64,000 nucleotides of DNA from Escherichia coli (GCA_009729775.1 GCA_009729775.1_4081.1); one strand, 5' to 3'; shown: positions 42,304-45,084, numbered from the stretch's first letter. Made by a program: numbers and translations. Notes: generated by a model from the letters alone, not told the origin.

Positions 42304-42675
42304 TTATGACATACGCTTATTATGAATGGAATTATGAATGGATTTTAAATAATTATATAATTTTATCAATCCACTACCAGTAGCTACAAACAGTAGTGCT
42401 GTTGGTATCATACATCCAAACATGGTTATTAATTCATGTATTTCCATACCATCACTATTTGGTCCCACATCAAATATAACAACCAAAACAACACCTAAAA
42501 TGCTTAGACAATAATATCCCATAAAGACCATAAAAGTGATATATCCGGCACTTGATTTAATATTACATAACATATTATACACTGGATTAATACAGAAGAA
42601 GTATAATAACCATACCAGTGTTCCAGTACTGAACATAATAATTGAAATAATGGAAAATATCTCACGGTAACTCAT
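42304..42675 (-). CDS. small multi-pass membrane protein (123 aa)
   Basis: Several hydrophobic helices; first of 8 packed membrane ORFs. Confidence 0.6.
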   Translation of the reverse strand: MSYREIFSIISIIMFSTGTLVWLLYFFCINPVYNMLCNIKSSAGYITFMVFMGYYCLSILGVVLVVIFDVGPNSDGMEIHELITMFGCMIPTALLFVATGSGLIKLYNYLKSIHNSIHNKRMS

Positions 42676-42676
42676 A

Positions 42677-43039
42677 TTATTTCCTCATACCCAAACGTTG
42701 GTGGATTTCAGAGATCTTTATATACAATAGTACCACAAGGTGCAGTACTAAACAACATATAATTACGGCTAATACCAACGAACATATCATAAGACCGAAG
42801 GTTATTGTATTCAAAGATGATGTGAACAGTCCAATTATTAATACAATAAAACCAAAATTGAATACTGTACCCAACACAGTATATGCTGGACTATATCTCT
42901 TTTGGATTACATCATATATATTTGATAATGGTCGCTTATGGAAGTACTTCCCAATGCACACGAATGCATTCAGTGAGAAGATAAATGTATACGCCATTAC
43001 TAGTAATTGACCAACGAAAGATAATTCTATCCCGTTCAT
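42677..43039 (-). CDS. small multi-pass membrane protein (about 120 aa)
   Basis: Start adjusted to MNGIELSF... with GAGGT RBS. Confidence 0.55.
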   Translation of the reverse strand: MNGIELSFVGQLLVMAYTFIFSLNAFVCIGKYFHKRPLSNIYDVIQKRYSPAYTVLGTVFNFGFIVLIIGLFTSSLNTITFGLMICSLVLAVIICCLVLHLVVLLYIKISEIHQRLGMRK

Positions 43040-43040
43040 A

Positions 43041-43409
43041 CTAACCTCGTTTACGTTTTTTAATTGTACTGTGCATCTTTTCGAAATAGGGAACCAAAAC
43101 ATATTGAACAGTTTGCCAGATAACCATTAGATTATGCACTGCACCACCAAGGATACCAAACACTAGAACAATAATTGCCATAATAGGATCACCGTCTACC
43201 ATACCCCATTTAAAGATATGTAAAATCCAAGCAATGACTAGACATAATAAACTAAGCCAATACGTAATGAAAAATCCGGCTTGTAATTCATAATCATCAG
43301 CAATTTCATCGTATACCGTTTCTAAAAATGATACACAAAAGAATTTACCAATTATAACCACAGTACTAATAAACAGCATAGCAGTTAAGATAATAAGAGC
43401 AATTTCCAT
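43041..43409 (-). CDS. small multi-pass membrane protein (122 aa)
   Basis: Hydrophobic helices; ORF track. Confidence 0.6.
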   Translation of the reverse strand: MEIALIILTAMLFISTVVIIGKFFCVSFLETVYDEIADDYELQAGFFITYWLSLLCLVIAWILHIFKWGMVDGDPIMAIIVLVFGILGGAVHNLMVIWQTVQYVLVPYFEKMHSTIKKRKRG

Positions 43410-43723
43410 TACATCCCTCGTTTACGCTTTTGATTGCGTCTAAATTCTGTTAGTCCACGGCTAATCGGCGGCATCAGACTACATAAAAAAGTAACAGTTG
43501 TTGGTAGTAACATCAAGTCAATCATTGCAGTGTTATCTGGTGGATCAAAAATCAAAAAATACACACAAGAAACACTAATAATGGTTGAACCGATAAAAGG
43601 AATACAAAATTCTTTTATCTGTTTTTCAACATAATCAAACATCTTGAGTACAAATAAAAATCCAACCCAACACATAATGAAATAGAATGAATACAACGTG
43701 TAAATCAATGTTACTATATCCAT
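43409..43723 (-). CDS. small multi-pass membrane protein (104 aa)
   Basis: Hydrophobic helices; 1-nt overlap with neighbours. Confidence 0.6.
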   Translation of the reverse strand: MDIVTLIYTLYSFYFIMCWVGFLFVLKMFDYVEKQIKEFCIPFIGSTIISVSCVYFLIFDPPDNTAMIDLMLLPTTVTFLCSLMPPISRGLTEFRRNQKRKRGM

Positions 43724-44061
43724 TAGTACCTCGCATCAGGAACTTTAGCACGTAACTTATGAACGACTGGGAACAACAACAAACTTACATATGCAATAGT
43801 TGAACCCCAATAGAATACTAATACAATTGGTTCACCATTAGAACGGAAACCTCTACTAATCATTGAGTAGTGAATAATAGGCATAATCATCGCCATACCA
43901 AACCATGCGTGTAATTTTAATTGCAGCATGTTATCAGCGATGAATACTGAAATTGGTCGTTTGAAGAACCACATCAGAAAGTAGAATCCAGCACTAATAA
44001 TATAGTACATGGTACTAACTTTCATATACCACGGCAGTAAGTGTAAAAAATATTCCATCAT
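43723..44061 (-). CDS. small membrane protein paralog (112 aa)
   Basis: WFFKRP motif after first helix. Confidence 0.6.
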   Translation of the reverse strand: MMEYFLHLLPWYMKVSTMYYIISAGFYFLMWFFKRPISVFIADNMLQLKLHAWFGMAMIMPIIHYSMISRGFRSNGEPIVLVFYWGSTIAYVSLLLFPVVHKLRAKVPDARY

Positions 44062-44405
44062 TCCTCCGGTATCTTGTTTCGAAGGTCAATCATAACACAA
44101 CAAAGTTTAATGATCAAGTGAAAAACTACACATATCATACCAATTGTTCCATAAACGACTGAAAAAGCAGGTAGTGCTTTTCCGGCTAGAACAGCCACAA
44201 TACATGCAATCAATGTTGATGCAAACAACGATTGATTAATGAAAGAATTCATAAAATCTTCACCATTACGCTTATAGAATTGTCGTTTAAAATACCATCC
44301 TAGAAACATAACTACCCAAAATGTTACATAACCTGTTAGAATAATCCCTGCAATTGAATGTGCAACTGGACTACTCCTTAAAAACTCAAGATAAGCTTCA
44401 AACAT
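44058..44405 (-). CDS. small membrane protein paralog (115 aa)
   Basis: WYFKRQFYKRNGEDF motif. Confidence 0.6.
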   Translation of the reverse strand: MFEAYLEFLRSSPVAHSIAGIILTGYVTFWVVMFLGWYFKRQFYKRNGEDFMNSFINQSLFASTLIACIVAVLAGKALPAFSVVYGTIGMICVVFHLIIKLCCVMIDLRNKIPEE

Positions 44406-44743
44406 TAGAAGTCTCCGCGAATTTTATCTCTACCATGAATAATGAGATGGATTAAGTATACAACTAACCAAATGAACAACCCAAAGAATACAATATATTG
44501 TGAGATTGAGTTCAAGTGAGGATTGGCACAATAAATTAAGTGTGCCATAAGACCAACAATTGCAAACAAACCTTGAACAAGTGTGTAAAGAACTAGTGAT
44601 GAATTCCTCACTGGATACAGTTTAAAAACAATTTTCTTTTTAAAATACCACAGTACTACAACCAGTGCATGATAAAAGAAAAAACCAAAAAGATAAATCA
44701 AAGTAATACTAAGCATTGTATCTGACTTAAAGAATGTTAACAT
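44405..44743 (-). CDS. small membrane protein paralog (112 aa)
   Basis: Close paralog of 44743-45084 (WYFKKKIVFKLY, C-terminal RDKIRGDF). Confidence 0.65.
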   Translation of the reverse strand: MLTFFKSDTMLSITLIYLFGFFFYHALVVVLWYFKKKIVFKLYPVRNSSLVLYTLVQGLFAIVGLMAHLIYCANPHLNSISQYIVFFGLFIWLVVYLIHLIIHGRDKIRGDF

Positions 44744-45084
44744 TAGAAATCCCCTTTAATTCTATCACGAGCTTTAATAATAAAGTATATGCTACATACC
44801 AACAACCACACCATTAGACCTGAAAACACAAGATATTGTGTAATGTGTGGTGTATTATCAATTTGTAACATGTAAATCGCATATGTCATCACACCAAATA
44901 AAATAAACCCACCTTGGATAATACTATATAAAACTAAGACTACATTATCATCCGAATACAATTTAAAAACAATTTTCCTTTTAAAATACCACAGACTAAT
45001 TACAATTGAATGATAACACAAAAATACAAACATGTAAATTAGCGTGATACCAAGCATTGTATCTGAATTAAAAAACTCAAGCAT
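44743..45084 (-). CDS. small membrane protein paralog (113 aa)
   Basis: WYFKRKIVFKLY, C-terminal RDRIKGDF. Confidence 0.65.
   Translation of the reverse strand: MLEFFNSDTMLGITLIYMFVFLCYHSIVISLWYFKRKIVFKLYSDDNVVLVLYSIIQGGFILFGVMTYAIYMLQIDNTPHITQYLVFSGLMVWLLVCSIYFIIKARDRIKGDF

Follow-up and report, generated by a model that had tools for sequence, protein, structure and literature searches.

An array of predicted three-helix membrane proteins downstream of an NrdC.10-like ATPase gene in Rak2-like jumbo phages

Class I holins of the lambda S105 type are proteins of about 105–120 amino acids (aa) with three helices, an N-out/C-in orientation and a charged, basic cytoplasmic C-tail. A second group of small phage proteins of the host inner membrane, comprising T4 Imm and Sp, P22 SieA and HK97 gp15, stops, at the envelope of an infected or lysogenic cell, the DNA entry of other phages, and Imm, Sp and SieA are made early (PMC11436027, PMC10883804). 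In this study, we analysed a stretch of 64,000 nucleotides (nt) recorded under Escherichia coli (GCA_009729775.1), hereafter the window, which carries eight contiguous minus-strand open reading frames (ORFs) for small membrane proteins at 42304–45084 and a related trio at 51255–52290. The window comes from an Asteriusvirus, a 121Q/Rak2-like jumbo coliphage: a 4-kb region is 95–97% identical to ECO103 4-12-1, 121Q, SP27 and other Asteriusvirus phages, which are Rak2-like jumbo coliphages with genomes of about 350 kb.

The results showed that the array and the trio form part of one multigene family, which is restricted to Enterobacterales jumbo phages of the Rak2-like type. Databases already list its genes, labelled 'hypothetical' or 'membrane protein'. 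GAP32 (GAP32_522-527), fHe-Yen9-04 (g519-g524), Kaldavass (CDS0069-0076) and 121Q (gp224-232 and gp207-209) carry genes of the same family or of its GAP32-type branch, which code for about 110 aa with three predicted helices (a TMHMM/Phobius note in GAP32) and stand, as in the window, in the slot after an NrdC.10-like gene. The records of annotated Rak2-like 'membrane protein' genes carry no family assignment or function; the unification of the family, its topology, the conserved linkage to NrdC.10, the promoter context and the effect of Shine-Dalgarno (SD) signals within C-terminal codons come from the present analysis.

We tentatively read the array proteins, at a probability of roughly 0.45, as acting individually at the host inner membrane in exclusion or host takeover, and most likely they are neither lysis holins nor parts of the virion. 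The array proteins are, like Imm, Sp, SieA and gp15, small phage proteins predicted for the inner membrane, and the array genes resemble T4 imm and sp in lying among non-structural genes with probably early expression. They differ in that no sequence or fold similarity connects them, and in that the described exclusion genes are single and not a conserved multi-paralogue array. With class I holins they share size, three helices, a predicted N-out/C-in orientation and a basic cytoplasmic C-terminus (charge counts over 74 members), but they have no holin family match, lysis cassette or late motif, and they are present in eleven copies. Tandem duplication, mosaicism and variable copy number are shared with tandem arrays in the 'plastic' regions of jumbo and T4-like phages, such as the adjoining RCC1-like array, and tandem duplication has been cited as a route of jumbo genome growth (PMC7247149). 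Compared with these, the present array is unusually old, and its paralogues keep one-to-one orthologues and order from Asteriusvirus to RaK2.

The eleven genes are listed below with the names used in the text (TM, transmembrane).

44743–45084, minus strand: m8, 113 aa, three predicted TM helices, clade B; recent duplicate of m7, missing from PBECO4/slurp01-type relatives
44405–44743, minus strand: m7, 112 aa, three predicted TM helices, clade B; orthologues RaK2 ORF311 and Hallingskeid CDS0092
44058–44405, minus strand: m6, 115 aa, three predicted TM helices, clade B; C-terminus ...LRNKIPEE
43723–44061, minus strand: m5, 112 aa, clade B, weaker hydrophobic segments; orthologue RaK2 ORF312
43409–43723, minus strand: m4, 104 aa, three predicted TM helices; weakest placement in the superfamily; 121Q orthologue split into two ORFs (gp228/229)
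43041–43409, minus strand: m3, 122 aa, three predicted TM helices, clade A (GKFFCV ... KKRKRG)
42677–43039, minus strand: m2, 120 aa, three predicted TM helices, clade A
42304–42675, minus strand: m1, 123 aa, three predicted TM helices, clade A; orthologue RaK2 ORF315
51952–52290, minus strand: t3, 112 aa, three predicted TM helices, clade B (trio)
51601–51942, minus strand: t2, 113 aa, three predicted TM helices, clade B (trio); mechanical ORF from TTG 51948
51255–51599, minus strand: t1, 114 aa, three predicted TM helices, clade B (trio); mechanical ORF from GTG 51623

All eleven ORFs were found where the sequence-only reading had placed them, and of the sizes it gave for the eight (104–141 aa) one required correction. 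The mechanical 141-aa ORF of m2 (42677–43102) overlaps m3 by 62 nt; the start is ATG 43039 (120 aa), which is preceded by an SD and is annotated likewise in 121Q gp231. The most likely starts of t2 and t1 are ATG 51942 and ATG 51599, in agreement with the database orthologues P0025/P0026 and with the 121Q gene lengths. The reported spacers of 0–4 nt did not hold: the junctions within the array are a 4-nt overlap (ATGA), 1-nt overlaps (TAATG) or 1-nt spacers. The ORFs correspond to 121Q gp232-gp224 and gp209-gp207, every one of which is labelled 'hypothetical' in the 121Q records. The trio lies about 6 kb upstream of the array and not directly after the NrdC.10-like gene.

Family unity, topology and C-terminal motifs

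BLASTP gave strong paralogy only for m7–m8 (55% identity, 3e-40), t2–t3 (7e-10) and t1–t2 (1e-5). The paralogy that had been called clear was thus visible by BLASTP for m7/m8 and within the trio, and the other links needed profiles; the motifs quoted for it (WYFKKKIVFKLY, WYFKRKIVFKLY, WFFKRP, RDKIRGDF and PER/PEK/PNR) are all present. In PHROGs, the window genes fall into at least seven small families without an assigned function (19454, 19285, 19046, 27396, 33258, 26405 and 27618), with full-length matches of 1e-49 to 1e-70 for 9 of the 11 proteins and weak matches for m2 (0.046) and t1 (2e-4). We clustered the syntenic genes of RaK2, A4, Hallingskeid, Kae01/Munch, Kaldavass, GAP32 and fHe-Yen9-04 together with database relatives, and compared the cluster profiles by hhalign with column-reversed profiles as the control (n = 42).

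Two clades were obtained, and both are firm. Clade B consists of m5, m6, m7/m8 and the trio, with profile–profile matches of 96–97% (P 4e-9 to 2e-11). Within it, the cluster of m7/m8 and the trio matched the m5 or m6 profile at 96–97% (P 4e-10 to 2e-11), which supports the earlier view that the trio is related to the array. Clade A consists of m1, m2 and m3 (profile match 95.6%), and the GAP32-type branch joins it at 93.8%. The two clades matched each other at 76–83% (P ~1e-5, 103–106 collinear columns), and m4 matched m6 of clade B at 83.9% (P 7.8e-6). These profiles indicate that all eleven genes form one superfamily, in which the A–B link is of moderate strength and, together with the position of m4, is the least secure part.

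It is highly improbable that the similarity of most members is merely compositional and that several unrelated small membrane genes, alike only in their three helices, stand side by side. Such an explanation would fit the absence of BLASTP significance for most pairs, the division of the genes among at least seven PHROG families, and the reversed-profile controls, the worst of which reached P 1.4e-4 over 50 columns. However, the real matches are collinear and full length (97–115 columns), whereas the controls covered 50–78 columns with a median score of 12. We iterated a family hidden Markov model (HMM) over database proteins and some 560 ORFs taken from 17 sources; it converged on 112 sequences, every one of which is an array- or trio-type gene or a database orthologue of such a gene. 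The HMM took in none of the other small membrane ORFs of the same loci, such as 60414–60791 and 61240–61566 of the window, 331–675, 1439–1789 and 3024–3302 of Hallingskeid, and nrdC.7 of RB69. Length, topology, motif positions and genomic slot are also common to the members in seven lineages, which further argues against a compositional origin.

A hydropathy scan at a threshold of 1.6 found three hydrophobic helices in 10 of the 11 proteins, in line with the description of the eight ORFs and the trio as small multi-pass membrane proteins; m5 showed one segment at this threshold and three weaker segments at 1.35–1.85. Topology prediction had been proposed as a check of that description. Among 74 non-redundant members, the N-terminus carried on average 0.36 Lys+Arg per protein and loop 2 carried 0.53, compared with 2.85 for loop 1 and 4.69 for the C-tail. 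This charge distribution predicts an N-out/C-in topology, with the short acidic N-terminus and loop 2 in the periplasm and the basic loop 1 and basic C-terminal helix in the cytoplasm. The AlphaFold2 (AF2) model of m3 (pLDDT 91.8, pTM 0.74) placed a short cytoplasmic helix between helices 1 and 2, followed by a long helix 3 that runs into the basic tail, and the model of m7 (pLDDT 73.7) was similar, with three long helices and a short helix in loop 1.

Loop 1 carries an aromatic-aromatic-Lys/Arg motif immediately after helix 1. The conserved motifs of clade B are [IV]-L-x-[FYW]-F-K after helix 1 and L-[RH]-x-K-[IL]-P at the C-terminal end, with F34 conserved at 100%, K35 at 100% as a basic residue, and R105 and P109 at 82% each. 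All of these strongly conserved positions would lie at the cytoplasmic face in the predicted topology. Conservation is seen in the cytoplasmic juxtamembrane motifs, and the transmembrane and periplasmic parts vary. An acidic residue behind helix 2 that looked conserved by eye in alignments was dropped, as it forms no family-wide column.

The C-terminal motifs had been taken as a family signal, and this holds for one part of them. Of the 36 family genes with a stop directly adjoining the following ATG, 30 had an SD-like tetramer in their last 19 nt, compared with 2 of 16 uncoupled genes (Fisher P 2e-6) and a frequency of 0.09–0.10 in internal windows. The SD of the next gene is encoded by PEE (CCGGAGGA), RGD (CGCGGAGAC) or KRG (AAACGAGG). 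KRGK is the usual end of coupled genes in GAP32 and fHe-Yen9-04, and KRNK is that of the uncoupled ones (522/523 and g519), with one exception each way. Since the last codons carry the SD of the next gene, the differences between the RGDF and PER/PEK/PNR ends are largely a translation signal. The LRxK[IL]P part is kept in uncoupled genes and is therefore a signal at the protein level. This overlap is a caution that inference from motifs may mislead in tightly packed phage operons.

Distribution, age and evolution of the array

The gene that precedes the array is the following.

45152–45925, minus strand: gene for a T4 NrdC.10-like P-loop ATPase, 257 aa, conserved upstream neighbour of the array; phrog_1250 at 4e-99 and a weak AAA_16 match

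We mapped the distribution of the family through this neighbour because tblastn with family members gave almost nothing: a Hallingskeid member matched only Hallingskeid itself, and a clade-B consensus gave no match, for which the low-complexity filter is the probable cause. The array directly follows the NrdC.10-like gene in seven Rak2-like lineages (121Q, A4, RaK2, Hallingskeid, Kae01/Munch, Kaldavass, GAP32 and fHe-Yen9-04). A tblastn search with the NrdC.10-like protein matched 1310 phage records, RB69 nrdC.10 among them, and NrdC.10 occurs in more than 1200 phage genomes. No array was found downstream of NrdC.10 in the four non-Rak2 genomes inspected, which were XaC1, the jumbo phage Vibrio 2.275.O, RB69 and a PA5oct-like phage. 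Protein searches returned 23 clusters from 5.8 billion proteins and 27 clusters from 1.84 billion representatives; the representatives of the 27 clusters are 56–127 aa long and matched at near full length in all but three, which are truncated. The metagenomic matches lie in phage-like contigs, one of which carries a tandem pair together with other genes common to RaK2. The names 'Phi92_gp231/gp233' in the ph0011 record look mis-transferred; judged by gene size, they belong to unrelated small phi92 genes (121 and 75 aa) and stand for neither family members nor a homologue of NrdC.10.

RaK2 carries its own orthologues of m1, m3, m4, m5 and m7/8 in the same order, A4 has an orthologue for every window paralogue, and orthologues are also present in Hallingskeid. 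These paralogue-specific orthologues in RaK2 and A4 indicate that the diversification is older than the split of these genera. Genomes carry from about 4 copies (Kae01/Munch) up to about 12 (Hallingskeid). At informative divergence, dN/dS was 0.10–0.42 for the membrane genes and 0.04–0.05 for nrdC.10 in the same genome pairs. The membrane genes thus evolve several times faster than the neighbouring ATPase gene, yet under purifying selection.

Identity to 121Q was 100% for m1 and m2, 98% for m3, 83% for m8 and 59% for nrdC.10. This mosaic indicates recombination breakpoints within the operon, both at the boundary of ATPase gene and m8 and among the array genes. The gene m8 is present or absent among relatives and is missing from PBECO4-type phages. 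We also observed that the NrdC.10-like ATPase exists as two deeply diverged alleles within Asteriusvirus. The window allele is 96–100% identical to those of UE-S1, ph0011 and WPEC3, about 86% identical to that of the Erwinia phage Hallingskeid and 59% identical to those of 121Q and PBECO4, a pattern that indicates allele replacement by recombination.

These results bear on an alternative that we consider unlikely, in which the paralogues would be subunits of one hetero-oligomeric inner-membrane assembly, perhaps docked through their cytoplasmic motifs to the co-transcribed NrdC.10-like ATPase. The synteny of ATPase gene and array in seven Rak2-like lineages is consistent with it, as are the paralogue-specific orthologues in the same order in Asteriusvirus and RaK2, the stop–start overlaps with the SD in the preceding gene, which favour balanced co-translation, and the cytoplasmic position of all conserved residues. 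However, NrdC.10 is found in more than 1200 phage genomes, with the array in none of the four non-Rak2 genomes inspected downstream of it. Copy number varies between 4 and 12 with lineage-specific gains and losses (m8, RaK2 ORF309/310 and the split m4 orthologue of 121Q), the breakpoints at the ATPase–m8 boundary and within the array occur without co-variation, and the trio and other clade-B copies lie elsewhere in the genome. This birth-and-death pattern fits independent accessory effectors better than obligate subunits of one complex. In a more specific and quite unlikely form, the paralogues would be the membrane subunits of a phage-built machine that docks the NrdC.10-like ATPase through the cytoplasmic FFK and LRxKIP motifs. 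If true, this would be an ATP-driven membrane device with no equivalent in cells or viruses, which might, for instance, serve the giant-capsid cycle as a platform or actively bar incoming DNA.

Promoters, timing and function

Two promoter-like elements precede the array.

45954–45983, minus strand: composite of a hairpin and a putative sigma70-type promoter (GGGTTGACactaGTCGGCC TTTTTTG C TATAAT), upstream of the NrdC.10-like gene; 12/12 consensus match
45114–45142, minus strand: promoter-like element TTGACAGTACTAACAACGTGTAGTACTAT within the 67 nt that separate m8 from the ATPase gene; 10/12 match; conserved in 121Q, UE-S1, PBECO4, Ec-M-J and ph0011

In the composite element, a terminator-like stem contains the -35 hexamer in its 5' arm, and the -10 hexamer has a TG extension. 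It was found at the same place in eight phages of four lineages (121Q, PBECO4, ph0011, A4, RaK2, Kae01, Munch and Hallingskeid). The T4-type late motif TATAAATA occurs twice in the 64 kb, compared with 14.3±3.3 copies expected, and a scan of the window found none before the array operon. Both copies (56407–56414 and 57056–57063, minus strand) stand closely upstream of genes homologous to gp201 and gp199 of 121Q, both annotated 'structural protein', and this position suggests T4-like late promoters in this phage and selection against TATAAATA elsewhere.

The neighbours of the array are of early type, namely the NrdC.10-like ATPase, an HNH endonuclease, endonuclease V and a kinase. A related jumbo phage depends on host RNA polymerase (PMC7318152), and the endolysin of this phage group is 121Q gp532 (PMC5259590), about 300 genes from the array. 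In the virion proteome of phAPEC6, nothing was detected between gp010 and gp035c, the interval to which the array would belong by its coordinates (15–18 kb). Taken together, these observations point to pre-late expression and against a holin or structural role.

The sequence-only reading had offered a generic list of superinfection exclusion, holin/antiholin function and transport inhibition, and holins, antiholins or pinholin-like lysis-timing proteins now appear very unlikely. Their size, three helices, predicted N-out/C-in orientation and charged cytoplasmic C-tail agree with those of lambda S105 and other class I holins. Because its N-terminus holds a membrane helix, the group's endolysin would need a membrane-depolarising partner (PMC5259590), and fold matches to holins were obtained in BFVD, though not significant (E ~5). 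However, Pfam matches at E ≤ 1 for 39 members (11 window proteins and 28 relatives) included no holin family, nor did NCBIfam. The array is not in a lysis cassette, with no adjoining endolysin or spanin, and the endolysin gp532 is distant from gp224-232. Sigma70-type promoters are present where the late motif is absent, and eleven early-expressed copies would kill the cell if they formed holes.

Individual action at the inner membrane would work as follows. Host RNA polymerase would transcribe the array in the early or middle period from the conserved sigma70-type promoters, and the proteins would insert into the host inner membrane and act there one by one as accessory host-interface effectors. 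Each paralogue would most plausibly bind or block a different inner-membrane component. The infected cell would thereby be protected through the long jumbo-phage cycle, for example against the DNA entry of competing phages (exclusion like that by Imm, Sp, SieA or gp15) or through other membrane-level interference.

Several points weigh against this proposal. Its functional part rests on analogy, and Pfam, PDB and BFVD searches linked the family neither by sequence nor by fold to Imm, Sp, SieA or another characterised exclusion protein. The promoters are consensus matches, and the number of promoter-like sites in the window is not above that of shuffles (75 vs 63.7±8.4). Virion mass spectrometry easily misses small hydrophobic proteins. 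The A–B clade link and the placement of m4 stand just modestly above the worst reversed control. Moreover, conserved order, one-to-one orthologues across genera and translational coupling would equally suit the subunits of one complex.

Single-sequence scans of Pfam, NCBIfam and PADLOC and sequence searches of the PDB gave sub-threshold noise and no relative. Foldseek of the m7 model against PDB and BFVD gave no match at E < 2; for the Imm/Sp family there was neither a Pfam match nor a BFVD fold match at E < 2. Literature searches on 121Q/PBECO4 membrane proteins, nrdC.10, fENko-Kae01, fHe-Yen9-04, fEgEco12 and RaK2 transcriptomics returned no functional or expression data on these genes.

Counter-defence is a further explanation that we hold to be unlikely: as intramembrane binders, the proteins would neutralise membrane-embedded abortive-infection or other defence effectors of the host, one effector per paralogue. 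The probable early timing suits it, and so do the birth-and-death, mosaic evolution under relaxed constraint, as in arms-race genes, and the combination of variable transmembrane and periplasmic parts with conserved cytoplasmic juxtamembrane motifs. However, there was no similarity to PADLOC systems: among the defence models only PycTM appeared, at E 0.018 and for 1 of the 11 proteins, which we counted as no match. The literature searches gave no precedent for this family, and the old one-to-one orthologues across genera argue against very rapid switching of targets.

More than 80% of the genes of Rak2-like phages are without a function (83% in phAPEC6, PMC7247149), and such phages are in development for therapy against E. 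coli, Klebsiella and Salmonella. The present results turn eleven 'hypothetical' genes per genome into one defined family with a predicted topology, a conserved operon position, a probable early timing and a proposed role at the host inner membrane. If each paralogue excludes a different competitor or disarms a different membrane effector, this would account for the protection that a slow giant phage gives its host cell, and would be relevant to the design of phage cocktails.

Other features of the window

The composite element AAAAGGGTTGACttcgGTCAGCCCTTTTTGCTATAAT recurs in ten minus-strand copies (9768–9740, 11691–11663, 15050–15022, 19104–19076, 45983–45954, 47766–47737, 49048–49019, 53749–53720, 56625–56596 and 59868–59839). 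In each, a terminator-like hairpin holds the -35 hexamer in its 5' arm, and its T-run forms the spacer to a TG-extended -10 hexamer. Such an element would in effect be a putative stop-and-restart punctuation between early transcription units. A second promoter class, TTGACA-N11-AGTACTGTATAAT, was found on the minus strand with its first -35 base at 11261, 14123, 14319, 15786, 17416, 17939, 18536, 27746, 50609 and 61640. Its AGTACT box is also present in the element at 45142 and in the hairpin at 42274–42299. This class could be a distinct temporal class or could bind a phage factor.

Downstream of the array, three further features were identified.

42274–42299, no strand assigned: perfect 11-bp palindromic hairpin AATCCAGTACT-ATCA-AGTACTGGATT in the gap that separates m1 from the gene after it on the minus strand; lacks a minus-strand T-run; may act in RNA stability or processing
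41600–42262, minus strand: 220-aa gene, phrog_34359; probably the last gene of the transcription unit in Asteriusvirus
41210–41228, no strand assigned: bidirectional terminator-like hairpin where the minus-strand operon and the RCC1-like genes run towards each other

In Munch and GAP32, an opposite-strand gene of similar size occupies the slot of the 220-aa gene. The RCC1-like ('DNA condensation protein') array comprises eight plus-strand paralogues of about 360–450 aa (31317–41203) that converge on the membrane-gene operon, and phAPEC6 has RCC1-like homologues associated with its virion.

Upstream of the ATPase gene lies an HNH/homing-endonuclease-like gene (46342–47481, minus strand; phrog_681, 3.5e-48). 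The content of this slot varies: 121Q gp221 measures 1464 nt, and endonucleases are annotated in Hallingskeid, Kaldavass, GAP32 and Yen9-04. The endonuclease slot may be a cause of the local mosaicism. Between the HNH gene and the nrdC.10 promoter, a predicted 64-aa lipoprotein is encoded (46132–46326, minus strand) with a signal peptide ending in ...IMSGC and a weak YecR-like match (E 4.5e-4); 121Q has a different gene of 93 aa there.

Just upstream of the trio, two paralogous genes for secreted proteins of 137 and 139 aa (52579–52992 and 53761–54180, minus strand) flank a kinase-like gene (53050–53724); both proteins have signal peptides and share GDxFSFxY and LKYVYES motifs. Other small predicted membrane ORFs on the minus strand are 60414–60791 (125 aa), 61240–61566 (108 aa), 61624–61866 (80 aa) and 48242–48436 (64 aa), the last two without a PHROG or credible Pfam match. 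Finally, two further tandem arrays of very small paralogues were observed on the minus strand, at 3160–8219 (about 70–96 aa) and 28364–31232 (about 60–81 aa), in which N-terminal motifs such as 'MK.I.LT..EY..R' and 'MN..HKE[FY]Y' recur.

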